From an uncultured SAR116 cluster alpha proteobacterium (GTDB lineage Bacteria; Pseudomonadota; Alphaproteobacteria; Puniceispirillales; GCA-002684695): a DNA stretch of 64,000 nt. The position numbers and the translations under genes were made by a program. The notes beneath the pieces were generated by a model. That model ran no database searches. It was not told the DNA's origin and saw only the letters and a list, made by a program, of their open reading frames with translations. Of this stretch, positions 49,042 through 64,000 are shown one piece after another (within the stretch, counting starts at the first letter, position 1; each line of letters opens with the position of its first letter). Location of the stretch: contig CABYVI010000002.1 of assembly GCA_902522415.1 (NCBI GenBank), positions 10,568 through 74,567 on the forward strand, given 5' to 3'.

Positions 49042-50130
49042 ATGGGAAAAAGAATTTTAGCACTTGGTGGTGACGGCATCGGACCTGAAGTTCTTGAATC
49101 TGGTATTCAAGTATTACAGCTAATTGACCAAATTTACAATATTGATTTAGAATTTGAATTGGATGATATAGGTGGCATATCTTGGGATAAGCATGGCACT
49201 TTCTGTACTAATAAAACTATTGAAAAAGCAAAAGCTTCAGATGCGATATTAGTTGGAGCTGTTGGAGGACCAAAATGGGATAATTTAAATATAAAAGGCC
49301 CCCCAGAAAATCAAGATGGATTAATGAAACTAAGGAAAGAACTTGATGCTTTTCTTGGTATAAGACCAGCTTTATATTATAGAGGATTACAAAATCAGGT
49401 TCCATTAAAGAAAAGATTATTTGAAAATGCAGATATACTTATATTACGTGAAATGACAAGCGGTGTAATGTTTTCTCAACCAAGGGGAACAAAAAATATT
49501 GATGGAATACGTTATGCTTTTGATACTGCAGCTTACAATGAAATTGAAATCAGAAGATTTGTTAGAGAAGGTTTTGAATTAGCTAGAAAAAGAAAGAAAA
49601 AAATTTGTTCTATTGATAAGGCAAATGTAATGGAAAGTTACAAACTTTGGAGAAAAGTAGTAGACGAAGTTTCTAATGAATATAGAGACATAGAATTAAC
49701 CCATTACTATGCTGATAATTGTGCATTTCAATTTGTCATGAACCCCTCAAATTTTGATGTTATGCTAGGCTGTAATTTTTTAGGTGATTTGTTTTCTGAC
49801 TTAGCAGCTATCATTTCAGGTGGATTAGGTTTGTTGCCATCAGCATGCCTTTGTGGATCAACAAATTTTCCTGTAAAAGGTATTTATGAGCCTGTTCATG
49901 GATCTGCTCCTGATATTATGAATTTAGGCAAGGCAAATCCTATTGGTATGATTTTAAGTATCTCAATGATGTTTTATTATTCATTTAATCGTAAAGACAT
50001 TAGTAAAATCATTGACCATTCTGTAAAAACAATAATTAATAAAGGCCATGTAACTCGTGATTTAAATGGTCATTTATCTACACAAGACGTAACTAAAAAA
50101 ATTTTAGATCAGATTAAATTATGTCATTAA
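49042..50130 (+). CDS. Isopropylmalate/isocitrate/tartrate dehydrogenase-family beta-decarboxylating dehydrogenase (LeuB-like)
   Basis: 362 aa. LGGDGIGPEV, GAVGGPKWD, LRKELDAFLGIRPA, the DNCAFQ and GSAPDI segments. Sits in a catabolic-looking operon, not with leuCD. Confidence 0.8.
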   Translation: MGKRILALGGDGIGPEVLESGIQVLQLIDQIYNIDLEFELDDIGGISWDKHGTFCTNKTIEKAKASDAILVGAVGGPKWDNLNIKGPPENQDGLMKLRKELDAFLGIRPALYYRGLQNQVPLKKRLFENADILILREMTSGVMFSQPRGTKNIDGIRYAFDTAAYNEIEIRRFVREGFELARKRKKKICSIDKANVMESYKLWRKVVDEVSNEYRDIELTHYYADNCAFQFVMNPSNFDVMLGCNFLGDLFSDLAAIISGGLGLLPSACLCGSTNFPVKGIYEPVHGSAPDIMNLGKANPIGMILSISMMFYYSFNRKDISKIIDHSVKTIINKGHVTRDLNGHLSTQDVTKKILDQIKLCH

Positions 50131-51827
50131 GTTATGATTATATAATTGCCGGTGGTGGGTCAGCAGGGTGTACTTTAGCTTCAAATCTAGCAGTTAAATC
50201 TGATGCAAAAATATTGCTTATTGAAGGCGGTGGAAATGGTAAAAGTTTATTTACAGAAATGCCTGCAGGAAATGGGTTTATTTTTGGCAATCCAACCTAT
50301 GATTGGATGTTTGAGAGCATTCCTCAAAAAGGACTAAATGGAAATAAAATTTACTATCCTAGAGGTAAAGGTCTTGGAGGTTCATCTTTATTAAATGGCA
50401 TGATCTATATTAGAGGAAACCCTATTGATTTTGACAGATGGAGACAAAAAGGGTTGGAAGGTTGGTCTTACGCCGATGTCCTTCCATACTTTAAGCAATC
50501 AGGTAATGCACATCACAGAAAAGGAAGTCCGTTTCATTCAAATACTGGTCCTTTGAAGATATCGCCTGCTGGTAATGATGACCTTATAAACAAAGCTTTT
50601 ATTGATGCTTGTATACAGGCTGGAGCAACTTATAATAAAGACTTTAATGGACTTAAACAAAATGGGGTTGGAAGGTATGACAGTACAATTTTTAAGGGCA
50701 TCAGAAGCTCATCAAGAAAGTCATATTTAGATAAAAAGTTTAAAAACCTCACTATCTTAAAAAATGAAAAGGTTTTTAAAGTCATTATTGAAAAAGAAAG
50801 AGCAAAGGGAATACAGCTAAAAGATAAAATAATCCATGCTGAAAAAGAGATTGTTCTCTGTCTAGGCGCTTTTGGCTCACCTCAATGTCTAATGTTGTCT
50901 GGAGTTGGTCCTGAAGATCACATAAAATACCATGGCATCGATTTGAAATTGGATTTACCAGGAGTAGGTTTGTCATTATATGATCATCCAAATTTTCCTG
51001 TCCATTTCTCTCTTAAAGATGAAAACTTAAGTATGTCTAGATACCAGCGTTTAGACAGGGCAATAGCAATGGGTTTAGAATATATTTTTTTTAAAAGTGG
51101 TGCTGCAGCCTCATCTTTTTGGTCTACATCTCTTTTTCATTCATTAAATGATGAAGAACTGCCTGAAATCCAAATTAATTTTACTCCTATGGTTGTTAAA
51201 GAAGAAGCTGCTAGTACAAATTTTTCAATTCAAAACTTTTTAAATTTTGGAAAAGCAATAATTGCTAGAGGAAAAACTGCAATACCAGGAATTCAACTTG
51301 ACATTAATTTACTTCAACCAAAAAGTGTTGGTTCAGTTAAATTATCTTCATCAAATCCTTATGAAAAACCTTTAATAGATCCAGGTTATCTTAGCGATCA
51401 AAGAGATATAGAGGATCTTTGCAAGGCATTTAAGCATTTAAGGCATATATGTAATCAAGATGCTCTCAAAACAATAATTGGAAGTGAGTTGTCTCCAGGA
51501 AAAAATATTAAAACAGAAGACGAAATTCATACTGCAATAAGAAACTTAACTACGACTGGTCATCATCCTGTGTCTACGTGTAGAATGGGTAATGAAAATG
51601 ATAAAGAAGCTGTTTTAGATAAGAACCTTAAAGTTCGAGGTATTAATTCTTTAAGGATTGTTGATGCCTCGGCATTTCCTGACCAGATTAATGGAAATAC
51701 AAATGCAGCTGTTATAATGATGGCTGAAAAAGCAGCAGATATCATACTTAAAATTTCACCATTAAAAAGAGAGGATCCAAGAGAAAACTCTTTTTTATTA
51801 GAAAAGGAAGAAAATGAAAATTTATAA
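50121..51827 (+). CDS. GMC-family FAD oxidoreductase (choline/alcohol dehydrogenase-like)
   Basis: 568 aa. YDYIIAGGGSAGCTLASNLA, GKGLGGSSLLNGMIYIRG, C-terminal HPVSTCRMG. Overlaps the upstream gene by 10 nt. Confidence 0.85.
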   Translation: MSLSYDYIIAGGGSAGCTLASNLAVKSDAKILLIEGGGNGKSLFTEMPAGNGFIFGNPTYDWMFESIPQKGLNGNKIYYPRGKGLGGSSLLNGMIYIRGNPIDFDRWRQKGLEGWSYADVLPYFKQSGNAHHRKGSPFHSNTGPLKISPAGNDDLINKAFIDACIQAGATYNKDFNGLKQNGVGRYDSTIFKGIRSSSRKSYLDKKFKNLTILKNEKVFKVIIEKERAKGIQLKDKIIHAEKEIVLCLGAFGSPQCLMLSGVGPEDHIKYHGIDLKLDLPGVGLSLYDHPNFPVHFSLKDENLSMSRYQRLDRAIAMGLEYIFFKSGAAASSFWSTSLFHSLNDEELPEIQINFTPMVVKEEAASTNFSIQNFLNFGKAIIARGKTAIPGIQLDINLLQPKSVGSVKLSSSNPYEKPLIDPGYLSDQRDIEDLCKAFKHLRHICNQDALKTIIGSELSPGKNIKTEDEIHTAIRNLTTTGHHPVSTCRMGNENDKEAVLDKNLKVRGINSLRIVDASAFPDQINGNTNAAVIMMAEKAADIILKISPLKREDPRENSFLLEKEENENL

Positions 51828-53286
51828 TTGTTTTATAAATAACAAATGGGTGAAACCCCATTCAGGGAAATGGTTTTATTCTGAAAATCCAGCAAATGGA
51901 GAAGAATGGGCTAAAGTTTCAGATTGTAATTCTGAGGACGTCAATGATGCAGTAAAAGCAGCTAAAGATGCTTTCTATGAGGGTGAATGGAGTATGATTT
52001 CTGCAGCCCAAAGAGGCAGATACCTTCACAGAATTGGTGAAGTAGTAACTAAATATGCTGACCGTTTAGGAAAAGTAGAAACCAAGGATAATGGAAAGCT
52101 ACCAAAAAATATTACTCCTTCTCTCAGGCAGGGACAATGGCTTGTTGATAGTTGGCACTATTATGGCGGTATGTGTGATAAATTTGAAGGTAAGTTAATT
52201 CCATCAGAAGCAACAAATATTCATAACTATATGCATTGGGAGCCTTATGGTGTGGTTGCTCAAATTCTTCCTTGGAACTCTCCATTAGGAACTTTATTTT
52301 GGAAATTAGCTCCATGCCTTGCAGCGGGCAATACAGTGGTTCTAAAACCCTCAGAGCATGCAAGCTGCTCAATTTTAGAATTAATGGAAATATTAATTGA
52401 AGCTGAGTTGCCACCTGGTGTAATAAATGTTGTTACAGGTTATGGGAAAAGTGTTGGAGAGCCTCTAATAGAACACAAAGATGTTAGAATGGTGTCTTTT
52501 ACTGGTGGAACTAGTGGCGGAAGAGCTGTTGCTTCAATAGCTTCGAAACAAACAAAGCCAATTGTTATGGAGCTTGGTGGTAAATCTCCACAAATTATCT
52601 TACCAGATGCAGATATAGATTTAGCTGTTAACGGCGTAGTTTCAGGTATTTTCCCGGCGGGTGGTCAAAGCTGTATCTCTGGTTCACGAATACTTATTCA
52701 CAAATCAATTTTTAAAGAAGTAACCAAGAAATTATTAACAATATCAAAAAAAGCTGTGGTTGGCGATCCTCTTGATCCCAAAACGCATATTGGTCCTATT
52801 GCTAACAAGAACCATTATGAAAATATTTTGAAAAATATTTCCAAAGCTACTGAAGACGGTTGTGAGATAATTCTAGATGGTAGAACTCATAAAAAGGATA
52901 AAGGATATTTTGTTGGACCTACAATATTTTCAAATGTGCCAAATAGTTCTTTTTTAGCTCAGAATGAAATTTTCGGTCCAGTTATCTCAACTGAACCTTG
53001 GGAAGATGAAAGTGAAGTTATTAAAAAAGCTAATGATACCATTTATGGTCTTGCAGCAGGAATATGGACAAAAGATACAATTAAAGGAATGCGGTTAGCA
53101 AATAGAATTGAATCAGGCACAGTTTATATTAACAATTACTTTAATGCAGCAACACAAAGTCCAGTTGGCGGATATAAGCAATCTGGTTATGGTAGAGAAA
53201 ATGGTTGGGAGGGAATGAGATGCTTTATGCAAACTAAATCTGTATGGCTTTCGACAAAGCCATCCGAACCAGATCCATTTTTATAA
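51814..53286 (+). CDS. NAD(P)-dependent aldehyde dehydrogenase
   Basis: 490 aa. FTGGTSGG, MELGGKSP, catalytic Cys region GQSCISGSR, EIFGPV. 14 nt overlap upstream. Confidence 0.9.
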   Translation: MKIYNCFINNKWVKPHSGKWFYSENPANGEEWAKVSDCNSEDVNDAVKAAKDAFYEGEWSMISAAQRGRYLHRIGEVVTKYADRLGKVETKDNGKLPKNITPSLRQGQWLVDSWHYYGGMCDKFEGKLIPSEATNIHNYMHWEPYGVVAQILPWNSPLGTLFWKLAPCLAAGNTVVLKPSEHASCSILELMEILIEAELPPGVINVVTGYGKSVGEPLIEHKDVRMVSFTGGTSGGRAVASIASKQTKPIVMELGGKSPQIILPDADIDLAVNGVVSGIFPAGGQSCISGSRILIHKSIFKEVTKKLLTISKKAVVGDPLDPKTHIGPIANKNHYENILKNISKATEDGCEIILDGRTHKKDKGYFVGPTIFSNVPNSSFLAQNEIFGPVISTEPWEDESEVIKKANDTIYGLAAGIWTKDTIKGMRLANRIESGTVYINNYFNAATQSPVGGYKQSGYGRENGWEGMRCFMQTKSVWLSTKPSEPDPFL

Positions 53287-53290
53287 AAAA

Positions 53291-54337
53291 ATGAAACCCG
53301 TCAAAAGTAAATTATTACTAGAAGGAAAACGAATTAACGTTAAATCAAGTACTTCTATTAGAGTTTTAAACAATATTTTTTTGAAGTTAGGATGCTCAAG
53401 AAAAACTAGCAAAGAAGTTTCAGAGCATCTTACAGATTCCAGTCTTTGTGACATGGAAAGTCATGGAATAATGCGCGTGTTACAGTATTCAGAACAATTT
53501 AAGTCAGGTTATATGAATGCTAAAGCAAAACCAAAAATCTTAGTTGATGACAAAGGGATAAAAAGGGTATCAGGTAATGGAGGTATTGGGATTCCAGTAA
53601 TGACTATCGCCTATAATGCAGGCGTTAGTGATGCAAAAAAATATGGGGTTTCGGCCTTATCCATTAGGGATGTTGGGCATACTGGAAGGCATGGTGCTTT
53701 TGCTGATGATGCTGCAAACAAAGGTGTCCTGACGATTTGTGTTGGTGGTGGAAATAGATATACATGGAGGCAAGTTGCACCTTATGGAGGTTCGAAAGCT
53801 ATTCTTCCAACAAACCCTTGGTGTATTGGCATTCCTGGTGGCAATTTAGGACCAGTAGTACTAGATTTTGCAACATCTAAAATTGCTGGTGGTTGGATAT
53901 ATGCCGCAAAATCTGCAAATGCTTTATTACCAAAAGATTGTATCATTGACAAAAGTGGTAATCCTTCTCAAAACCCAGATGACTATTTTAACGGAGGTGC
54001 AATTCTTCCATCTGGAGCACAAAAGGGATATGGCTTAGCATTAATAGGTGAGTTAATAGGAGAGGCTCTCTTAGGGCCATCCACTACTGAAGCAAATTGG
54101 CTCCTTATTTCAATAGATACGACTAGATATAGAAATAAAAACAATATTCAAAATGCTGCAGAGGAAATTTTAGACGAAATAAGAAAATGTCCACCCTCAA
54201 AAGGATTTAAAAATGTCGAAATTCCAGGGGAAAGAGAAAGGCAAAGTCGTAATAACGCAAATGGTAAAATTTCAATACCTGAAAGTACATGGAATCAAAT
54301 ATTAGAACTTTCAAATAAGCTAAGCACCATTAGCTGA
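53291..54337 (+). CDS. Ldh_2-family (malate/L-lactate/ureidoglycolate-type) dehydrogenase
   Basis: 348 aa. ESHGIMRVLQY, HTGRHGAF, the ATSKIA and QKGYGLAL segments. Confidence 0.7.
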   Translation: MKPVKSKLLLEGKRINVKSSTSIRVLNNIFLKLGCSRKTSKEVSEHLTDSSLCDMESHGIMRVLQYSEQFKSGYMNAKAKPKILVDDKGIKRVSGNGGIGIPVMTIAYNAGVSDAKKYGVSALSIRDVGHTGRHGAFADDAANKGVLTICVGGGNRYTWRQVAPYGGSKAILPTNPWCIGIPGGNLGPVVLDFATSKIAGGWIYAAKSANALLPKDCIIDKSGNPSQNPDDYFNGGAILPSGAQKGYGLALIGELIGEALLGPSTTEANWLLISIDTTRYRNKNNIQNAAEEILDEIRKCPPSKGFKNVEIPGERERQSRNNANGKISIPESTWNQILELSNKLSTIS

Positions 54338-55641: not shown

Positions 55642-56203
55642 ATCGAAAATTTTTTATGTCTTTATCAAGCTCTGAAAAGTTAATGTCTTTTTGAGGCGGG
55701 ACTATGAAAAGGCACTGTCTCCCATAAGTATCTTCTCTTTGGATATAGTTTTCAACGATATGGTAATAAGGTCTGTTGCAATAGTCATCAAATATTATTT
55801 TTGTCCCTTGTTTTGCATTTTTTAATGAAGTTAAAAAGCAGCAAACTCTGAACCTACCATCTATTAAGACTGTATCAGGAATTTGAGGTAATTTCCAAAT
55901 CCAATCAGTGTAATTATAAAAAATATCCGAATAATTGTAATTAATAGGGCGACCCCAATCACCCACCTCTCCTAAATCAATAAGTTTAATATTCAGTCTT
56001 TGAAGATATTTATTATTTTTATTTTTTGTAATTTGAACCCACTCACGTGAAGTATCTACAGAATGAACCACGATTTTAGAATTTCTTAAAACCCAGTCAG
56101 TCGAAAGGCCGCATCCATATTCACCATATAAATTTGTTTCTCTTAATATTTCTTTGAAGAGACTGTCATCTCCATCAAATAGAAGATTTTCCTTCTCTGT
56201 CAT
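55628..56203 (-). CDS. Hypothetical protein with class I methyltransferase-like fold
   Basis: 191 aa. Motif I-like YGEYGCGLST, acidic residue after beta-2 (VHSVDTS), DTVLIDGRFR resembling the FIDG motif of Methyltransf_24-type proteins. Weak. Confidence 0.4.
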   Translation of the reverse strand: MTEKENLLFDGDDSLFKEILRETNLYGEYGCGLSTDWVLRNSKIVVHSVDTSREWVQITKNKNNKYLQRLNIKLIDLGEVGDWGRPINYNYSDIFYNYTDWIWKLPQIPDTVLIDGRFRVCCFLTSLKNAKQGTKIIFDDYCNRPYYHIVENYIQREDTYGRQCLFIVPPQKDINFSELDKDIKNFRFVMD

Positions 56204-56733
56204 ATTTTAAAGAGATTTTTTTTATTATTATAATATTTCATTTTAATACATGGTACTTTCTTATTATGGAAAATGCTAAATATTTCTCCTTTTCCAATAA
56301 CATCAAAACCAGTTTTTATTAACACATTTCTAGAAGCCTTATTGCCAGTTAAATAACTTGCAAATATCTCTATATTATTAAAATTGTTCAAAAATCTTAA
56401 AGCGCCGTTCACAGCTTCAGTTGCCATTCCATTCCCCCAATATGGATACGCTAGCCAATACCCCAATTCAAAAATTTCTAAATCAACTTCTTTAAAACCG
56501 ACACCGCCAATGAGACTATCATTAAAATATATATTTGATTGAAATTTATTTCTTTTTACCAAATTAGACCAATTAATAGCATCTTGTAAAGAGTAAGGGT
56601 TGGGCACATTTGTTAAAAATTTTGCTACTTTCTTGTCGCCTATTTCTAATACTAGAGTTTTAAAATCTTTTTTTCTGATTTTTTTTATTTCTAATCTTGA
56701 TGTTTTAAAAATCATATTAATATCTAAAACCAA
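56200..56733 (-). CDS. GNAT-family N-acetyltransferase (RimJ/RimL-like)
   Basis: 177 aa. ELGYWLAYPYWGNGMATEAVNGALRF motif A region. Confidence 0.8.
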   Translation of the reverse strand: MVLDINMIFKTSRLEIKKIRKKDFKTLVLEIGDKKVAKFLTNVPNPYSLQDAINWSNLVKRNKFQSNIYFNDSLIGGVGFKEVDLEIFELGYWLAYPYWGNGMATEAVNGALRFLNNFNNIEIFASYLTGNKASRNVLIKTGFDVIGKGEIFSIFHNKKVPCIKMKYYNNKKNLFKI

Positions 56734-56739
56734 TACATT

Positions 56740-57630
56740 TTAAGTTACTATTTGGCCTTTAATCATTCCAATAAGCGCATTTTCTTCCATCCTGAAAGAT
56801 CTATTTTTTTTTACTACCATTTGATAATTTCTTGGCGGTAAACTTAAAGAAGTTGCTTTAAGCAAGCCTGTTTCCAAAGCAAGAGATACAACATGCCTTG
56901 AAATAAGTGTTACACCAACTCCTGCAATTACTGCCTCTCTAACAGACTCATTGCTTGGGAGTTCTAAAACAATATCTAAATCAGACCAAGAAATTTTATT
57001 TTGAATCACAAGATCTTCTAATACCTTTCTTGTTCCTGAACCTTTTTCTCTTACGATCCATGGTAATTTCGATATATTATTTAAGTTTTCTGATAGTCCT
57101 AATGAAGCCCAACGAGAAACTGAAGCTACTAAGGCTATTTGATCATGATCAACTTTAATAAATCTAAGTTCATCAGAAAAAACTTCGGCTTCCACAAAAC
57201 CAATGTCAACCTTTCCATTTACAACTGCTTTTTCTACATTGCTTGTATTTGTCATTGTTAAATGTAACGCCACTTCAGGGTGTCTTGCGTGGAACAATGC
57301 AAGTTTTCTAGGAAGCCAATAATTTGCAATTGTTTGACTAGCAGCAATTTTTAAACTACCAACAGTTTTTTCACTTAAAGACCTGAGATATTTTGTTGCA
57401 CTTTTCGCACTTGCAATGGCACTTTGAGCTTCTGGAAGGAAACGTTTACCTACTTCAGAAAGGATAATCGAACGACCAACCCTTTCAAAGAGTTTTACTT
57501 GATATATATTTTCTATTGAAGCAATTGATGCTGATGCAGCAGACTGAGTAATGCCAAGCAAATCTGCTGCTTTAGTAACGTTTCCCACTTCAGCAATAGC
57601 TAGAAATATTTTAAGCTGATTCAAAGTCAT
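56740..57630 (-). CDS. LysR-family transcriptional regulator
   Basis: 296 aa. wHTH LNQLKIFLAIAEVGNVTKAADLLGITQSAASASIASIE. Divergent from the molybdoenzyme operon and followed 6 nt later by the GNAT gene. Confidence 0.85.
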   Translation of the reverse strand: MTLNQLKIFLAIAEVGNVTKAADLLGITQSAASASIASIENIYQVKLFERVGRSIILSEVGKRFLPEAQSAIASAKSATKYLRSLSEKTVGSLKIAASQTIANYWLPRKLALFHARHPEVALHLTMTNTSNVEKAVVNGKVDIGFVEAEVFSDELRFIKVDHDQIALVASVSRWASLGLSENLNNISKLPWIVREKGSGTRKVLEDLVIQNKISWSDLDIVLELPSNESVREAVIAGVGVTLISRHVVSLALETGLLKATSLSLPPRNYQMVVKKNRSFRMEENALIGMIKGQIVT

Positions 57631-57770
57631 CCTAATTCATAACATAAATCGATTGTTTTGACAATAATAACTCATTAGACTTGTTAATAAAATTTATTTA
57701 AATAATAAACAGTCCATAGTTTTATAAATTTTGAAACCTAAGTAAAACGTTTAATTTTTTTTGAATTTTT

Positions 57771-60659
57771 ATGTCATTTGAGCCAGTTATAGAAAAATCC
57801 CCAAAAGTTTCAGATGAAATTAAAAAAACAACTTGTTACATGTGTGCTTGCCGATGTGGAATAAACGTCCATATTCGCGATAACAAGATTAGATATATAG
57901 AAGGTAATAAAGACCACCCAATAAACAAAGGTGTTTTATGTGCAAAGGGTTCAGCTGGAATAATGCAGCATTATTCCCCTGCTCGCTTAAAGTCCCCAAT
58001 GAAAAGGATTGGTCCAAGGGGGTCAGGCAAATTTGAACCTATTACTTGGGATAAAGCTCTGTCAATAGCAACAGATTGGCTTGAACCAATAAGAAATAAG
58101 GATCCAAAAAAACTTGCATTCTTTACAGGGCGTGACCAATCACAGGCATTAACTGGTTGGTGGGCCCAACAATTTGGCACCCCAAACTTCGCAGCCCATG
58201 GAGGGTTTTGTTCTGTTAACATGGCTGCAGGAGGTATTTATACAATAGGAGGTGCTTTTTGGGAATTTGGAGCGCCTGATTGGAACCTTACTGAAATGTT
58301 TGTTCTTTTTGGTGTAGCTGAAGACCATGATTCAAACCCAATCAAAATTGGCTTAGGAAAATTGAAAGGCAGAGGCAAACGTGTTGTTTCAGTTAATCCA
58401 GTTCAAACCGGTTATGCTGCTATATCAGATGACTGGTATGGTATTACCCCAGGAACCGATGGTTTATTAATACTCTCTCTTATTCGTGAATTATTTCTTT
58501 CAAATAAAATTGACGTTAATTACCTCAGAAGATATACAAATTCTCCCTGGTTAGTAATCCAAAATCCGGGCAAAAATAATGATGGTCTTTTTCTTAGAGA
58601 CCAATCAGGGCAACCACAAGTTATAGACAGATTATCAGGTAAAATAGTCTCTCATAGCAAAAAAGGCATTAGTCCTGAGATGAGTGGTAAAATTAAACTA
58701 GACACTGGCGGATTTGCTATACCTGTTTTCAAAATCATGTATGATACATATATAAATAGTACTTATTCACCAGAAAATATATCAAGTAAAGTTGGTATTT
58801 CTTCCAATAGGATACGAAAATTTGCTGCCGATCTTGCTGATGCGGCTTTTTCTAGAGAGGTTGTTATTAATCAACCTTGGACTGACTGGAAAGGTGAGAA
58901 ACATAAAAAAATGATTGGCCGACCTGTCTCAATGCATGCAATGCGAGGTATCTCTGCTCACTCAAATGGTTTTCAAACTTGTAGGGCTTTGCATGTATTA
59001 CAATTAATTTTAGGATCCATAGAAGTTCCAGGTGGGTGGCGGTTTAAACCACCCTACCCTAAACCACCAGAAGCCCATCCAAAACCATCAGGTAAACCAA
59101 ATCAAGTTCAACCAGGCAAACCTCTTACTGGCCCACCTCTTGGTTACGTTTTAAGTCCTGAAGATTTGATTATAAATGAGGATGGCTCTCCTCAAAGAAT
59201 TGATAAAGCTTACAGTTGGGATGCTCCTATGTCAGCTCATGGCCTTATGCATATGGTTATCTCTAATGCTGTTGCTGGTGATCCTTATCACATTGATGTT
59301 TTATTTATGTATATGGCAAATATGGCTTGGAACTCCTCCATGAATACTAGAGGCGTAATGGAGATGCTCACCGAAAAAGATGGAGATACTGGCGAATATA
59401 AAATACCAAAAATTATTTACTCAGATGCTTATTCATCTGAAATGGTAGCTTATGCTGATTTAATTTTGCCAGATACAACTTATCTTGAGCGACATGATGC
59501 TATTTCACTATTAGATAGACCTATATGTGAGGCTGATGCAGTTGCTGACGCAATCAGATGGCCAGTATTGAAACCAGACCGAGACGTTAGAGGTTTTCAA
59601 TCAGTTCTATTAGATTTGGGAGCAAGACTTAAACTACCTGGAATGGTAAATGACGATGGTAGTGCAAAGTATAAGGATTACGCAGACTACATTATTAATC
59701 ATGAACGCAAACCCGGCATTGGCCCACTTGCAGGATTTAGAGGAAATGGTGATAAATCAGGCCGAGGGGAACCAAATCCAGGACAAATAGAATCTTATAT
59801 GTCGAATGGTGCATTTTGGCATAAAGAAATACCCGAAGAAGCAAGATATTTTAAAATGGCAAATATGGAATATCAAAAATTTGCAGTAGACATAGGTATT
59901 TTTGATAAACCTGAACCATATACATTTCAAATTTATAGTGAACCTCTACAAAAATTTCAACTTGCTGCTTTAGGACACGGAAATATTCAACCCCCTGAAA
60001 ACATGCGTGATAGAATTAAGTCTAGCTTCACTCCTTTACCTATTTGGTATGAACCTTTTGAGGGAAAAGCTGTTTTAGAAGACGAATACCCAATTCATGC
60101 ACTTACACAACGCCCAATGGCAATGTACCACTCTTGGGGATCTCAAAATCCGTGGCTTAGACAAATACATGGCCAAAACCCAATGTATATTCCTATAAGC
60201 CTCGCCATGAAACATAACTTATCAGATGGAGATTGGATTTGGGTTACTTCTCATCATGGGAAAATACGTGTTCCTATTCTAACCATGGCTGGGTTAAATA
60301 AAAAAACAATTTGGACATGGAATGCGATCGGAAAAAGAAAAGGAGCATGGCAACTTGATGAAGATGCACCAGAAGCTAAGAAGGGGTTTCTTTTAAATCA
60401 TCTTATTAAAGAATTATTACCTGCAAAAGGCGATGGTCAAAGATGGTCAAACTCAGATCCAATAACTGGTCAAGCTGCGTGGTTTGATTTAAAAGTTAAA
60501 ATAGAAAAAGCTAATATCAACGAACCTCACGAGTCATACCCTCAATTTCCTCCGTTACCCAGAGAATACGGAACTATTCAAGATCCTCCAAAAAAACTTA
60601 GGTATGGAATTGAATGGACAAAACAAAATAAAGCCCATAATAAGAGTGATAATTCATGA
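57771..60659 (+). CDS. soeA: Molybdopterin (bis-MGD) oxidoreductase catalytic subunit, no Tat signal; tentatively sulfite dehydrogenase (quinone) subunit A
   Basis: 962 aa. N-terminal [4Fe-4S] motif CYMCACRC-X27-C (C-X2-C-X3-C-X27-C) with no twin-arginine leader. Followed by ferredoxin and DmsC-like genes with 4 nt overlap and 4 nt gap. Subunit sizes (962/247/306 aa) and cytoplasmic orientation fit the described SoeABC. The Mo-enzyme call is ~0.9; the Soe assignment ~0.55. Confidence 0.6.
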   Translation: MSFEPVIEKSPKVSDEIKKTTCYMCACRCGINVHIRDNKIRYIEGNKDHPINKGVLCAKGSAGIMQHYSPARLKSPMKRIGPRGSGKFEPITWDKALSIATDWLEPIRNKDPKKLAFFTGRDQSQALTGWWAQQFGTPNFAAHGGFCSVNMAAGGIYTIGGAFWEFGAPDWNLTEMFVLFGVAEDHDSNPIKIGLGKLKGRGKRVVSVNPVQTGYAAISDDWYGITPGTDGLLILSLIRELFLSNKIDVNYLRRYTNSPWLVIQNPGKNNDGLFLRDQSGQPQVIDRLSGKIVSHSKKGISPEMSGKIKLDTGGFAIPVFKIMYDTYINSTYSPENISSKVGISSNRIRKFAADLADAAFSREVVINQPWTDWKGEKHKKMIGRPVSMHAMRGISAHSNGFQTCRALHVLQLILGSIEVPGGWRFKPPYPKPPEAHPKPSGKPNQVQPGKPLTGPPLGYVLSPEDLIINEDGSPQRIDKAYSWDAPMSAHGLMHMVISNAVAGDPYHIDVLFMYMANMAWNSSMNTRGVMEMLTEKDGDTGEYKIPKIIYSDAYSSEMVAYADLILPDTTYLERHDAISLLDRPICEADAVADAIRWPVLKPDRDVRGFQSVLLDLGARLKLPGMVNDDGSAKYKDYADYIINHERKPGIGPLAGFRGNGDKSGRGEPNPGQIESYMSNGAFWHKEIPEEARYFKMANMEYQKFAVDIGIFDKPEPYTFQIYSEPLQKFQLAALGHGNIQPPENMRDRIKSSFTPLPIWYEPFEGKAVLEDEYPIHALTQRPMAMYHSWGSQNPWLRQIHGQNPMYIPISLAMKHNLSDGDWIWVTSHHGKIRVPILTMAGLNKKTIWTWNAIGKRKGAWQLDEDAPEAKKGFLLNHLIKELLPAKGDGQRWSNSDPITGQAAWFDLKVKIEKANINEPHESYPQFPPLPREYGTIQDPPKKLRYGIEWTKQNKAHNKSDNS

Positions 60660-61399
60660 CAAGTCTACCAGATCCATCAGCCATTAAACTTGGATTAGTT
60701 ATTGATCTTGATATTTGTGTTGGCTGTCAAGCATGCGTCGTTAATTGCAAGGAATGGAATACATCTGGTTATGGCGCTCCTCTGAGCGATGAAAACCCGT
60801 ACAGTTCAAATCCAAACGGTGCTTGGTTAAACCGAGTTCATGCATATGAGGAATTTAACTCTGAAAAGGTTAAAACAGTCCATTTTCCAAAATCCTGTTT
60901 GCATTGTGAAGATGCACCTTGTGTAACTGTCTGCCCAACTGGCGCTTCATATAAACGTGCAGAAGATGGAATTGTTCTTGTCAATGAGGATTGGTGCATA
61001 GGTTGTGGACTTTGCGCATGGTCATGTCCTTACGGAGCAAGGGAAATGGATCCAGTTGAAAATGTAATGAAAAAATGCACATTGTGCGTTGATAGGATCT
61101 ACAACGATAATATACCAGAGGAAGATCGAGTTCCTGCATGTGTAAGAACTTGTCCCACAAGTGCACGTCATTTTGGTGATTTGGGTGATCCTAATTCTAA
61201 AGTCAGTAAATTAGTAGCTGAACGCGGTGGTTATGACTTGCTTCCAGAACAACAAACCAAACCTGTTAATAAATATCTTCCGCCTCAATCGAGTTGTGAA
61301 TCTAATGAAGACCAGTTTTCATTGCTTGAAATGGCAGAAAGTAATTCCCCAAAAGGATTTTGGGAGTGGATGGACAATACACTAGAGAGATTAGGTTAA
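60656..61399 (+). CDS. soeB: Four-cluster [4Fe-4S] ferredoxin subunit (DmsB/NrfC-like); tentatively SoeB
   Basis: 247 aa. CVGCQACVVNC, CLHCEDAPCVTVCP, CIGCGLCAWSCP, CTLC...CVRTCP. Confidence 0.6.
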   Translation: MTSLPDPSAIKLGLVIDLDICVGCQACVVNCKEWNTSGYGAPLSDENPYSSNPNGAWLNRVHAYEEFNSEKVKTVHFPKSCLHCEDAPCVTVCPTGASYKRAEDGIVLVNEDWCIGCGLCAWSCPYGAREMDPVENVMKKCTLCVDRIYNDNIPEEDRVPACVRTCPTSARHFGDLGDPNSKVSKLVAERGGYDLLPEQQTKPVNKYLPPQSSCESNEDQFSLLEMAESNSPKGFWEWMDNTLERLG

Positions 61400-61403
61400 G
61401 CTT

Positions 61404-62324
61404 TTGCATCCTGCTTGGTCAATAATTTTTTTTACAACCCTATCCGGACTTGGATTTGGTTTTTCAACTTGGGTTGTTTTTGGATTTATAGAAATAAGAA
61501 ATATTTTTCAACTAATAATTACAGCTGGATTTACATTTTGTTTAATTGGTTCAGGACTACTTAGCTCAACACTCCATCTTGGGCATCCAGAACGAGCTTG
61601 GAGAGCTTTAAGCCAGTGGCGTTCAAGTTGGCTATCAAGAGAGGGCATTTTATCTGTATTAGTTTTGACAGCACTAACTTATTGGTTTTTATACACTTTT
61701 AGATATGGAGAACTACCTTTACTGATAAACATAACACTTATGACTATGATTTTATTTACCGTTTACGCTACCGCTATGATTTATGCATCGTTAAAAACTG
61801 TGACATGCTGGAATCAGTTTTTAACACCAGTATGTTATTTGATGTTTGCTATTTCAGGAGGTATGTTAGCAATTACATGGCTAATGTCTATTTTTGGACA
61901 ACTAATAACTTCGAGTACCTTTCAGATTTTATTAATACTTATTTTACTTACATGGGCTTTCAAAATAAAATGGTGGTGGAATTTAGACCATAGTCAATCA
62001 GAGAGCAATCTAGCAACTGCTACAGGTCTTGGTAAATTTGGTAAAGTTCGATCATTAATGCCACCTCATACTTCAGAGAACTATTTGCAAAAGGAAATGG
62101 GGTTTGTTGTTGCGAGAAAACATGCAATTAAACTAAGAGTAATTTCATTAACTCTTGGGGGAATAATACCTTTTGCAACTATCTTAATTGGCACATCTTC
62201 CTCATTACTACTTGGTATTATTCTTTTTATACATTTAGCAGGAGTTTTTGTCGAACGTTGGTTGTTTTTTGCTGAAGCAAAACACATTGTCTCACTCTAC
62301 TACGGAGATAAAACTTCTGTTTAA
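61404..62324 (+). CDS. soeC: Eight-TM membrane anchor subunit (DmsC/NrfD-like); tentatively SoeC
   Basis: 306 aa, TTG start, about 8 hydrophobic helices. Motif LHLGHPERAWRAL after helix 2 is typical of DmsC-type anchors. Confidence 0.55.
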   Translation: MHPAWSIIFFTTLSGLGFGFSTWVVFGFIEIRNIFQLIITAGFTFCLIGSGLLSSTLHLGHPERAWRALSQWRSSWLSREGILSVLVLTALTYWFLYTFRYGELPLLINITLMTMILFTVYATAMIYASLKTVTCWNQFLTPVCYLMFAISGGMLAITWLMSIFGQLITSSTFQILLILILLTWAFKIKWWWNLDHSQSESNLATATGLGKFGKVRSLMPPHTSENYLQKEMGFVVARKHAIKLRVISLTLGGIIPFATILIGTSSSLLLGIILFIHLAGVFVERWLFFAEAKHIVSLYYGDKTSV

Positions 62325-62334
62325 CAAAATGAAA

Positions 62335-63516
62335 CTAAGCATATTGACCAGCTACATATCCTGAAGACCAGGCCCATTGAAAATTATATCCACCAAGATG
62401 GCCAGTAACATCCATAACTTCACCAATAAAGAAAAGTCCAGGATACTTTTTAGACATCATAGTTTTTGAGGATATTTCATTAGTATCTATACCACCAAGA
62501 GTAACTTCAGCAGTTCTGTATCCTTCTGTTCCTATTGGTTTGACAAACCAGTTATTAATTGAATTACTTAATTTAGATAATGACTTATTTGAAATTTCAG
62601 AAATATTACCTTTAACATTATTTTGTAAACAAATAATTGAGGCAAGACGCTTGGGAATTATTTCAGATATAATTGAAGATACGTCAATTTTAGGACTATT
62701 AGATCGTTTATCAATTAAAAATTGCAAAATATTTATATTAGGGGATAGGTTAATACTGATTTCATCTCCTAATTTCCAATATGAAGAAATTTGTAATATT
62801 GAGGGACCACTTAACCCCCTATGAGTAAATAGCATTCCCTCTTCAAAAAAAGTTTTATTATGCGAAACTACTGCTTCAAGAGAAAGACCAGCGAGACCTT
62901 TACACATTGTTAGTATTTTTTCACTAAAAGTAAGAGGCACAAGCGCAGGCATGGTTTCAATAACTTTTAAATTGAATTTTCTAGCTAAATCATAGCCGAA
63001 TTTACTTGCTCCTATTTTTGGTATAGACAAACCACCTGAAGCAATTATCAGTGACTCACAATGATAATTATTATTTCCAAAACTAACAATATATTCATTA
63101 TCAATCATATTTATATCAGTAATAAAGATTTCTTTTTTTAAAGTAACCTTTGCTTTCTCTGCTTCTAAAAGAAGCATATCAATGATTTGCTGCGCACTCT
63201 TGTCACAAAAAAGTTGCCCTAATTTTTTTTCATGAAATTTAATTTTATGACTTTCAACCAAAGAAATAAAGTTTTCATGCGAGTATTGCTTTAGTGCAGA
63301 TTTAACAAAATTTGAATTTTGAGAAATAAATTTACTGGCATCAGTATTGAGATTTGTAAAATTACATCTTCCTCCACCTGAAATTCGGATTTTCTCACCA
63401 ATTTTTTTTGCATGATCTAATAAAAGTACTTTTCTACCTCTTTTTCCAGCCTCAATGGCACTCATCATGCCTGCTGCACCAGCTCCAACAACAATTATAT
63501 TAAATTCTTTAATCAT
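62335..63516 (-). CDS. HI0933/YhiN-family NAD(P)/FAD-dependent flavoprotein
   Basis: 393 aa. IIVVGAGAAGMMSA, ISGGGRCNFTN, C-terminal GEVMDVTGHLGGYNFQWAWSSG. Confidence 0.8.
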   Translation of the reverse strand: MIKEFNIIVVGAGAAGMMSAIEAGKRGRKVLLLDHAKKIGEKIRISGGGRCNFTNLNTDASKFISQNSNFVKSALKQYSHENFISLVESHKIKFHEKKLGQLFCDKSAQQIIDMLLLEAEKAKVTLKKEIFITDINMIDNEYIVSFGNNNYHCESLIIASGGLSIPKIGASKFGYDLARKFNLKVIETMPALVPLTFSEKILTMCKGLAGLSLEAVVSHNKTFFEEGMLFTHRGLSGPSILQISSYWKLGDEISINLSPNINILQFLIDKRSNSPKIDVSSIISEIIPKRLASIICLQNNVKGNISEISNKSLSKLSNSINNWFVKPIGTEGYRTAEVTLGGIDTNEISSKTMMSKKYPGLFFIGEVMDVTGHLGGYNFQWAWSSGYVAGQYA

Positions 63517-63552
63517 AATCTTTTGTTGATACTATTTTGGTTAAAAAAAATA

Positions 63553-64000
63553 TCACTGGCTCTTCTCTCTATTAATATTTCTTTCTTTCCAAATTGGAAC
63601 CATTGAGCTCCATACACCGTCATTTTTTAAACGATGATAAATTGCAGCAATAACATGAAATGATATAAGCCAATATATTAATGAAACGAAGAATTCATGT
63701 GCACCTACAATAATATTTATTAGAAGCTCATCCCTAAAACCTAATGAAAAAAAATAACCTATCAATAAACCTGAAATTGCTATTCCTGCTAAGCATATAT
63801 ACATAGAAAGATGCACTATTTTAGCAGCAAATTTCTGAGACTTTGGTGTATCGTCAGGAATAGAAGTTTTTTGTGTTTTAGTCATATAAAAGAAACGAAA
63901 GATAAGAAATAATAAAAATACTGAAGCAAATATTATTTCAGTTCTAAAAAAAGAAATATCTTCTAACTGATTAATATCATCAACTTGTTTGTATATACCA
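63553..64000 (-). CDS. Cytochrome b561-family membrane protein; gene continues beyond the right window edge
   Basis: Track shows 110 aa from an internal Met. My translation shows the frame stays open upstream to position 64000 (GIYKQVDDINQLEDISFFRTEIIFASVFLLFLIFRFFY-MTKTQ). His-containing helices (VGAHEFF, SFHVIAAIYHRL) and the WSSM tail fit CybB-like proteins. Confidence 0.65.
   Translation of the reverse strand, partial: GIYKQVDDINQLEDISFFRTEIIFASVFLLFLIFRFFYMTKTQKTSIPDDTPKSQKFAAKIVHLSMYICLAGIAISGLLIGYFFSLGFRDELLINIIVGAHEFFVSLIYWLISFHVIAAIYHRLKNDGVWSSMVPIWKERNINREKSQ

Follow-up and report, generated by a model that had tools for sequence, protein, structure and literature searches.

What does a molybdoenzyme that appears to face the cytoplasm do in an open-ocean bacterium of the SAR116 cluster, and where did its genes come from? 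These questions are raised by three adjacent genes, soeA, soeB and soeC, at positions 57771 to 62324 of a 64,000-nucleotide stretch of DNA (hereafter the window; GenBank assembly GCA_902522415.1, contig CABYVI010000002.1, positions 10,568 to 74,567) from a metagenome-assembled genome (MAG) of an uncultured alphaproteobacterium. The MAG (G000) comprises 1.2 Mb in 92 contigs, is 61% complete and has a G+C content (GC) of 31.7%. At a probability of roughly 85%, we read the three genes as encoding a canonical SoeABC sulfite:quinone oxidoreductase of the KEGG K21307-K21309 type that likely receives its sulfite through Xsc, and the operon as an ancient acquisition from high-GC Puniceispirillaceae.

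A three-subunit molybdoenzyme without export signals

The operon consists of the following genes.

soeA: 57771..60659, plus strand; 962 aa, 107.9 kDa, ATG start; catalytic subunit with a molybdenum bis-pyranopterin guanine dinucleotide (Mo-bisPGD) centre

soeB: 60656..61399, plus strand; 247 aa, 27.3 kDa; ferredoxin, four [4Fe-4S] clusters, lacking a signal peptide

soeC: 61404..62324, plus strand; 306 aa, 34.6 kDa, TTG start; haem-free quinone-binding membrane anchor of the DmsC/NrfD type

The open reading frames (ORFs) lie exactly where an earlier note on this DNA, made from the sequence alone, had placed a three-subunit molybdoenzyme of 962, 247 and 306 aa. That note's picture of the subunits also holds, namely a catalytic subunit with the FS0 motif C-X2-C-X3-C-X27-C and no twin-arginine signal, a four-cluster ferredoxin likewise without a signal, and an anchor resembling DmsC and NrfD. 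For comparison, the SoeABC subunits of Allochromatium vinosum are said to have masses of about 109, 27 and 36 kDa (here 107.9, 27.3 and 34.6 kDa).

SoeA matches the Pfam domains Molybdop_Fe4S4, Molybdopterin and Molydop_binding. Its FS0 [4Fe-4S] motif reads C22-x2-C25-x3-C29-x27-C57, and the N-terminus, MSFEPVIEKSPKVSDEIKKTTC, leads directly into this motif without a twin-arginine leader. We found no pair of adjacent arginines in the first 40 residues of either SoeA or SoeB, and a SoeA N-terminus free of such a pair is kept in the relatives. There is also no in-frame start upstream of 57771, as the ORF opens at the first ATG, GTG or TTG past the preceding stop codon; a longer N-terminus is therefore ruled out, and with it the cryptic twin-arginine translocation (Tat) signal at an upstream start that the earlier note had considered. 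The predicted Mo ligand of SoeA is C147, which aligns with Cys173 of Thermus thermophilus PsrA, a residue that we take to be the Mo ligand of that enzyme.

The three genes are tightly packed: the ATG of soeB overlaps the stop codon of soeA by 4 nt (ATGA), and soeB and soeC are separated by a gap of 4 nt. SoeB matches Fer4_11 and related dicluster ferredoxin families of Pfam, and its 16 cluster cysteines fall into four groups (21/24/27/31, 81/84/89/93, 114/117/120/124 and 141/144/162/166). SoeC matches the Pfam family DmsC (E 1.1e-18) and has eight hydrophobic segments, corresponding by hydropathy to eight predicted transmembrane helices. Its loops carry 15 lysine and arginine residues on the side of both termini versus 2 on the opposite side, and because of this imbalance the positive-inside rule predicts that the termini and all of the long charged loops are cytoplasmic. 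The predicted orientation is the inverted one that a review of NrfD-like proteins expects of SoeC relative to PsrC, both termini of which lie on the P-side (the positive side) of the membrane (PMC8076601).

Together these features suggest how the enzyme might work. SoeA and SoeB would remain in the cytoplasm, since neither has an export signal, and would dock on the cytoplasmic loops of SoeC. Sulfite would be oxidised to sulfate inside the cell at the Mo-bisPGD centre, with Cys147 as the predicted ligand, and electrons would travel from FS0 along SoeB's four clusters to the quinone that SoeC binds. The sulfite would likely derive from the desulfonation of sulfoacetaldehyde by Xsc, and the enzyme would both detoxify this sulfonate-derived sulfite and supply electrons to respiration. 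We infer the substrate and the direction of the reaction by homology, the orientation in the membrane from the charges of the loops, and regulation by the neighbouring LysR-family protein described below from gene position.

Relationship to known SoeABC enzymes

Relatives of SoeA were sought in one genome per species, which yielded 596, and the identities that follow are from the best 80 of these. All 80 are 63-77% identical to the protein of the window over nearly the whole length. The order to which the window belongs contributes two MAGs (L011 and L012), with proteins that are 76-77% identical, and the rest, at 63-68%, belong to roseobacters (Ruegeria, Sulfitobacter, Roseovarius and Yoonia), Rhizobiales and one gammaproteobacterium of the Granulosicoccaceae; full-length orthologues at about 64-67% include that of Mesorhizobium. 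The gene order soeA-soeB-soeC is kept in 25 of the 25 loci compared. A search of representatives at 50% identity returned mostly fragments; in it the SoeA family collapses onto a single full-length representative (P0124, 54% identical), and the other full-length representatives sit on very long branches.

The most informative named relative is the enzyme of Ruegeria. SoeA is 65% identical to that of Ruegeria arenilitoris over 933 aa (1309 bits), and the corresponding identities are 69% for SoeB and 41% for SoeC; within the genus, SoeC is 69% identical to that of the congener G004. In R. arenilitoris a MocR-type regulator, xsc (933 bits, cut-off 676), pta and soeABC follow one another consecutively, and the same arrangement, tauR-xsc-pta-soeABC, has been published for Ruegeria pomeroyi DSS-3, with tauR as SPO3562, pta as SPO3560 and soeA, soeB and soeC as SPO3559, SPO3558 and SPO3557 (PMC4334477). 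The soeABC genes of R. arenilitoris are the positional orthologue of those of R. pomeroyi, and we use them as its proxy. The Ruegeria enzyme shares with that of the window the gene order and the lack of signal peptides, and the FS0 motif and the motif around the predicted Mo-ligand cysteine are the same in the two SoeA proteins. The surroundings differ, in that soeABC of Ruegeria directly follows tauR, xsc and pta, whereas soeABC of the window is divergent from a lysR gene and xsc sits elsewhere in the genomes of its genus.

SoeA stays below the NCBIfam equivalog cut-offs for Phs, Ttr, Dms/Ynf, Arr, Nap, Nar and Fdh. Its highest NCBIfam score is with PhsA, at 182 bits against a cut-off of 694, and it scores 129 bits against DmsA/YnfE (cut-off 778), 91 against TtrA (cut-off 1750), 77 against NapA (cut-off 904) and 74 against ArrA (cut-off 1600). 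With 65% full-length identity to the Ruegeria protein, a gene order shared by all loci compared, no approach to the Phs, Ttr, Dms or Arr cut-offs and an anchor whose charged loops are predicted to be cytoplasmic, the identification of the enzyme as SoeABC by the earlier note is upheld. The nearest solved structure is T. thermophilus PsrA (109 bits), and although PsrABC (PDB 2VPZ/2VPW) has the same three-subunit architecture of a complex iron-sulfur molybdoenzyme, the likeness to PsrA is limited, lying mainly in SoeA residues 9-256. Unlike PsrABC, the enzyme of the window lacks a leader and has an anchor that is predicted to be inverted.

The SoeABC enzymes of A. vinosum (Alvin_2491-2489) and Aquifex aeolicus have been studied genetically and biochemically, according to passages of the NrfD review that cite Dahl et al. 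2013 and Boughanemi et al. 2020 (PMC8076601). In that account SoeABC has one subunit with Mo-bisPGD and a [4Fe-4S] cluster, a ferredoxin that binds four such clusters and an anchor resembling NrfD, and its peripheral subunits face the N-side (the negative side); the subunit composition found here is the same. A difference lies in the origin of the sulfite, which in these two organisms comes from Dsr-type lithotrophic sulfur oxidation, whereas the likely source here is the breakdown of organosulfonates. The SoeA proteins of A. vinosum, A. aeolicus and R. pomeroyi occur neither among the best 80 loci nor among the top 120 homologues of Ruegeria SoeA.

Selenocysteine in soeA was considered and rejected. 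A single TGA codon was flagged in seven high-GC relatives. In both loci with a stop inside the alignment (L107 and L110, from genomes G010 and G040) the TGA is the natural stop codon of soeA, at about query position 952 and not at the Mo ligand, with an alignable tail beyond it; the other three soeA loci checked have no internal stop.

Transfer of soeABC into a low-GC SAR116 genus

The genus of the window is a low-GC branch of the SAR116 order, Puniceispirillales, and within this order the distribution of soeA is uneven. Among the seven other genomes of the genus, three carry soeA, at 84-97% identity to that of the window. The gene is present in all 18 genomes of family f2 (up to 75% identity) and all 17 of family f4 (up to 79%), and in none of the 18 sampled genomes of family f3. 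Overall, SoeA of the window is 59-79% identical to the proteins of the other families of the order.

The SoeA tree does not follow this taxonomy. The three sequences of the genus form a clade nested inside the f4 genera g12, g14, g16 and g18 with 99% support in the Shimodaira-Hasegawa-like approximate likelihood ratio test (SH-aLRT), and constraining those f4 sequences to group together without the genus costs 60.9 log-likelihood units and is rejected by the approximately unbiased (AU) test (p = 0.0012). A named Puniceispirillaceae MAG falls among the relatives of the same order in this tree. In the ParC tree of the same genomes, the four families separate at 99-100% and the genus of the window is joined with f3. 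Measured along the branches, the window is 0.43 from its closest f4 sequence for SoeA and 1.46 for ParC, and within the genus, from the window to its congener G004, the path is 0.27 and 0.35, so that the ratio of SoeA to ParC distance is 0.29 to f4 versus 0.77 within the genus. Thus soeABC entered the low-GC SAR116 genus from a high-GC Puniceispirillaceae lineage, and today it is accessory there, carried by some members and not by others.

Base composition speaks to the age of this event. The related f4 copies have 51-61% GC and a GC at third codon positions (GC3) of 0.51-0.72, and the copies of the genus have 38% GC and a GC3 of 0.22-0.24 in a genome of 32% GC. Because the genus copies are near their host in GC and GC3 and far from the f4 copies, the transfer is old and nearly fully ameliorated. 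Against the long ORFs of this genome (513 of 300 aa or more; mean GC 32.5%, sd 3.6; mean GC3 0.199, sd 0.028), the three genes stand as follows.

soeA: GC 38.2%, 95th percentile; GC3 0.237

soeB: GC 40.6%, 99th percentile; GC3 0.258

soeC: GC 34.1%, 65th percentile; GC3 0.218

The GC3 values lie between the 79th and the 98th percentile, and most of the GC excess is at codon positions 1 and 2 (for soeA, 0.495 and 0.414 versus window means of 0.406 and 0.326). The GC-richer patch to which the earlier note had assigned the operon is thus real for soeA and soeB, although it is modest and does not include soeC. The same note had suggested either horizontal acquisition or constraint on the protein as the cause of the patch; each is true and they are not alternatives, since most of the excess is at the first two codon positions and yet the SoeA and ParC trees conflict. 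Composition alone would not prove transfer; the phylogeny does.

The presence of soeABC in SAR116 has been reported before, in subclade I and in two genomes of subclade III, where soe is rare, under the assignment K21307, and the SoeA tree in the supplement of that 2025 paper is polyphyletic, with horizontal transfer suspected (PMC12262181). Our SoeA tree holds further SAR116 groups, one with roseobacters and Rhizobiales and one a deep pair, and these multiple groups agree with the polyphyly and the suspected transfers of that study.

Sulfite supply and the molybdenum cofactor

Genes for the use of sulfonates were looked for as a source of sulfite. The lone candidate for xsc in this MAG, a thiamine diphosphate-dependent enzyme at a contig end, scores 357 bits (cut-off 676), shares 29% identity with Ruegeria Xsc and is not its orthologue. 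However, xsc is found above its cut-off in six of the seven congeners. One of these, G006, encodes a SoeA that is 97% identical to that of the window, and its DNA is 98% identical to this MAG where the two overlap. At locus L155 (G006:C23:40478-54205) its xsc lies beside pta in divergent orientation, a gene resembling citrate synthase and a taurine-type ATP-binding cassette (ABC) transporter (tauABC-like) whose permease is a 628-aa, fusion-length ORF. In the genus, xsc and pta occur together with a taurine-type ABC transporter. Contig C16 of this MAG starts 4.4 kb beyond the position of the G006 xsc, so a gap in the assembly covers the xsc cluster and does not demonstrate its absence. Sulfonate genes, to which the earlier note had pointed, are a feature of the genus, whereas in this MAG itself xsc was not found.

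SsuD was not found in the 61%-complete MAG, and as for SorA or SoxC, the lone match to the sulfite oxidase fold (Oxidored_molyb) is MsrP. Three TauE-family genes are present, and this family is too general for interpretation. A domain of the CysI-type sulfite reductase (NIR_SIR) was not found in any of the eight genomes of the genus (61-93% complete), and for this reason a dependence on reduced sulfur, as proposed in the earlier note, is still plausible, although the host is of the SAR116 order and is not SAR11-like.

Genes for making the cofactor, which the earlier note's assignment requires, are available in the genus. MoaA (360 bits, above its cut-off) and MoeA are present, and MobA, which was not found in this 61%-complete assembly, is above its cut-off in seven of seven congeners. 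A second enzyme with a bis-molybdopterin guanine dinucleotide (bis-MGD) cofactor is encoded near soeABC: the alpha subunit of an NAD-type formate dehydrogenase (914 aa; TIGR01591, 774 bits, above its cut-off) at about 4763-7507 of contig C2 (L002:823-3567), some 3 kb before the window begins, with a NuoF-like gene ahead of it. Elsewhere, on contig C14 (L007:452-2085), a gene for an XdhC-family maturation factor is followed by one for a MocA-like molybdenum cofactor cytidylyltransferase (124 bits, cut-off 186), a pair that points to an additional molybdoenzyme of the xanthine dehydrogenase or CO dehydrogenase family. In G004 a second mobA-like stretch (contig C29:37413-37974), beside the intact mobA on contig C7, is split, with TAA and TAG stop codons, and is probably a pseudogene.

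Accessory block, regulator and neighbours

In the window soeABC lies in a block that is found in syntenic form in G004 and is missing from two other congeners. The features of the block are as follows.

Accessory block: 56183..63581, 7.4 kb; genes for a GNAT protein, a LysR-family regulator, SoeABC and an HI0933-like flavoprotein

lysR: 56740..57630, minus strand, divergent from soeA; LysR-family regulator, Pfam HTH_1 and LysR_substrate

lysR-soeA intergenic region: 57631..57770, between divergent genes; 140 bp, AT-rich

HI0933-like gene: 62335..63516, minus strand, convergent with soeC at 10 bp; 393-aa FAD protein, Pfam HI0933_like (E 2.4e-92)

In G003 and G007 homology to the window runs up to 56182 and begins again at 63582, these two points being about 70 bp apart, and a cytochrome b561 gene (cytb561) directly adjoins a gene of 191 aa. 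The ParC tree pairs the window with G004 and G003 with G007, and the presence of the block therefore follows the sub-lineages of the genus. Whether the 7.4 kb were inserted or deleted is a matter on which the outgroup is silent, because synteny in the sister family f3 is uninformative: there, none of the window's neighbours stands beside the 191-aa flanking gene. An imperfect direct repeat of 22 nt (19/22) at 56134-56155 and 63563-63584, within about 30 nt of the edges of the block, may be a trace of recombination or a chance occurrence in AT-rich DNA.

Its position makes the LysR protein a candidate regulator of soeABC, and the 140-bp spacer presumably holds both promoters and a LysR operator. 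The LysR protein meets no NCBIfam equivalog cut-off. Adjacency of lysR to soeA is kept only in G004, where the LysR protein is 78% identical, and the HI0933-like protein is 79% identical in the same place in that genome. In the loci compared, the LysR, GNAT and HI0933-like genes were not found beside soeABC outside the genus. Roseobacters and high-GC SAR116 bacteria instead have a MocR/TauR-type regulator in the same place (MocR-type in L043 and L011). In the Puniceispirillaceae locus L011 (MAG contig JBMZTC010000002.1, L011:3830-8004), a class-III aminotransferase gene, the MocR-type regulator and a pta-like gene precede soeABC, and no xsc was seen among the ORFs scanned there. The operon thus has other neighbours in this genus than at the high-GC SAR116 loci; soeABC alone is common to it and the donor-side lineages, and the regulatory context has been replaced.

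Further upstream, at 49042-54337, the window contains an operon of four dehydrogenase genes (LeuB-like, GMC flavoenzyme, aldehyde dehydrogenase and Ldh_2). The aldehyde dehydrogenase and Ldh_2 genes occur in the same order in G003 and G007, both of which lack soeABC, so that the operon is not bound to soe. The match of the Ldh_2 protein to the L-sulfolactate dehydrogenase model is weak (162 bits, cut-off 500). For the GMC and aldehyde dehydrogenase pair the closest models are those of choline and betaine-aldehyde dehydrogenase, whose cut-offs the pair does not reach.

Alternative explanations

Several observations count against the interpretation that we favour. Neither xsc nor mobA is present in the 61%-complete assembly, though near-identical or congeneric genomes have them. 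Conversely, xsc is also found in three congeners without soeABC (G002, G005 and G007), and SoeABC is therefore not obligatory for the use of taurine. The operon of the genus adjoins neither xsc nor tauR but lysR and genes without an assigned role, a context that does not fix the source of sulfite. The link to an experimentally studied SoeA runs through the positional orthologue in R. arenilitoris and is one step indirect, the function proposed for the enzyme of this lineage is that predicted by homology, and the group constrained in the AU test was defined after inspection of the tree.

One way to account for the changed context is that the enzyme was re-tasked in this genus and oxidises or detoxifies another cytoplasmic oxyanion or sulfur species, under the LysR regulator and together with its GNAT, methyltransferase-like, GGACT and HI0933-like neighbours, and outside sulfonate catabolism. 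The replacement by lysR of the tauR/pta/xsc context seen in Ruegeria and at a Puniceispirillaceae locus would fit this idea, as would the retention of the neighbours with soeABC in G004 and the best NCBIfam match of the LysR protein, a selenium-metabolism-associated LysR model (210 bits). We nonetheless consider it very unlikely. That LysR match is under its cut-off of 250, and the methyltransferase-like, GGACT and glutathione S-transferase (GST) genes are also present in congeners without soeABC, so they do not form a soe-specific module. Moreover, SoeA retains 79% identity to high-GC SAR116 proteins and 65% to those of roseobacters, and the predicted Mo-ligand cysteine and the motif around it, AAHGGFCSVNMAAGG, are unchanged between the window and Ruegeria.

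Less likely still is that soeABC was inherited vertically, with amino-acid constraint as the sole cause of the higher GC and losses as the cause of the patchy distribution in the genus. The concentration of the GC excess at codon positions 1 and 2, with GC3 merely at the 79th to 98th percentile, is what such an explanation would predict; the absence of the 7.4-kb block from G003 and G007 could be a deletion, given the 19/22-nt direct repeat near both edges, and outgroup synteny leaves the polarity undecided. However, vertical descent conflicts with the nesting of the genus's SoeA within one part of f4 (99% support, the alternative being rejected at AU p = 0.0012), with the separation of the four families by ParC, in which the genus stands next to f3 (soeA in 0 of 18 sampled genomes), and with a SoeA distance to f4 that is 0.29 of the ParC distance versus 0.77 within the genus.

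The least likely explanation is a reductase of the Psr/Phs/Ttr/Sre type, in which quinol would supply electrons for the reduction of polysulfide, thiosulfate, tetrathionate or sulfur: among solved structures the nearest is indeed a polysulfide reductase (PsrA), PhsA is the top NCBIfam model, some roseobacter orthologues are named 'tetrathionate reductase subunit A' in public records and the Aquifex enzyme was reportedly first purified as a sulfur reductase, but those names are automatic, enzymes of this type, such as Psr, are Tat-exported and periplasmic and SoeA has neither a leader nor an upstream start that could supply one, its scores are 4- to 19-fold under the reductase family cut-offs, the predicted orientation of its anchor is the inverted one, and its orthologues sit with the sulfite-releasing xsc.

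Significance for SAR116

The enzyme family, its presence in SAR116 and the suspicion of its horizontal spread have already been published, and the locus itself is correctly identified but ordinary. The present analysis adds the side from which the genes came (high-GC Puniceispirillaceae), how old the transfer is by the degree of amelioration, the finding that two congeners have an empty site, and the exchange of the regulator.

On the reading of the enzyme as SoeABC, an abundant, streamlined SAR116 lineage of the open ocean probably includes members able to oxidise organosulfonate-derived sulfite in the cytoplasm and to pass the electrons into respiration. That soeABC is missing at the same site in close relatives helps in interpreting how strains differ in marine sulfur cycling. 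A further and unlikely idea is that after the transfer soeABC was uncoupled from the tauR-pta-xsc regulon and came under the control of LysR within the 7.4-kb block, alongside the GNAT and HI0933-like genes, as a free-standing module for sulfite stress or sulfite energy that would respond to sulfite or another sulfur compound and not to taurine. If this were true, the uncoupled module would be an ecotype-defining trait within an abundant open-ocean lineage.

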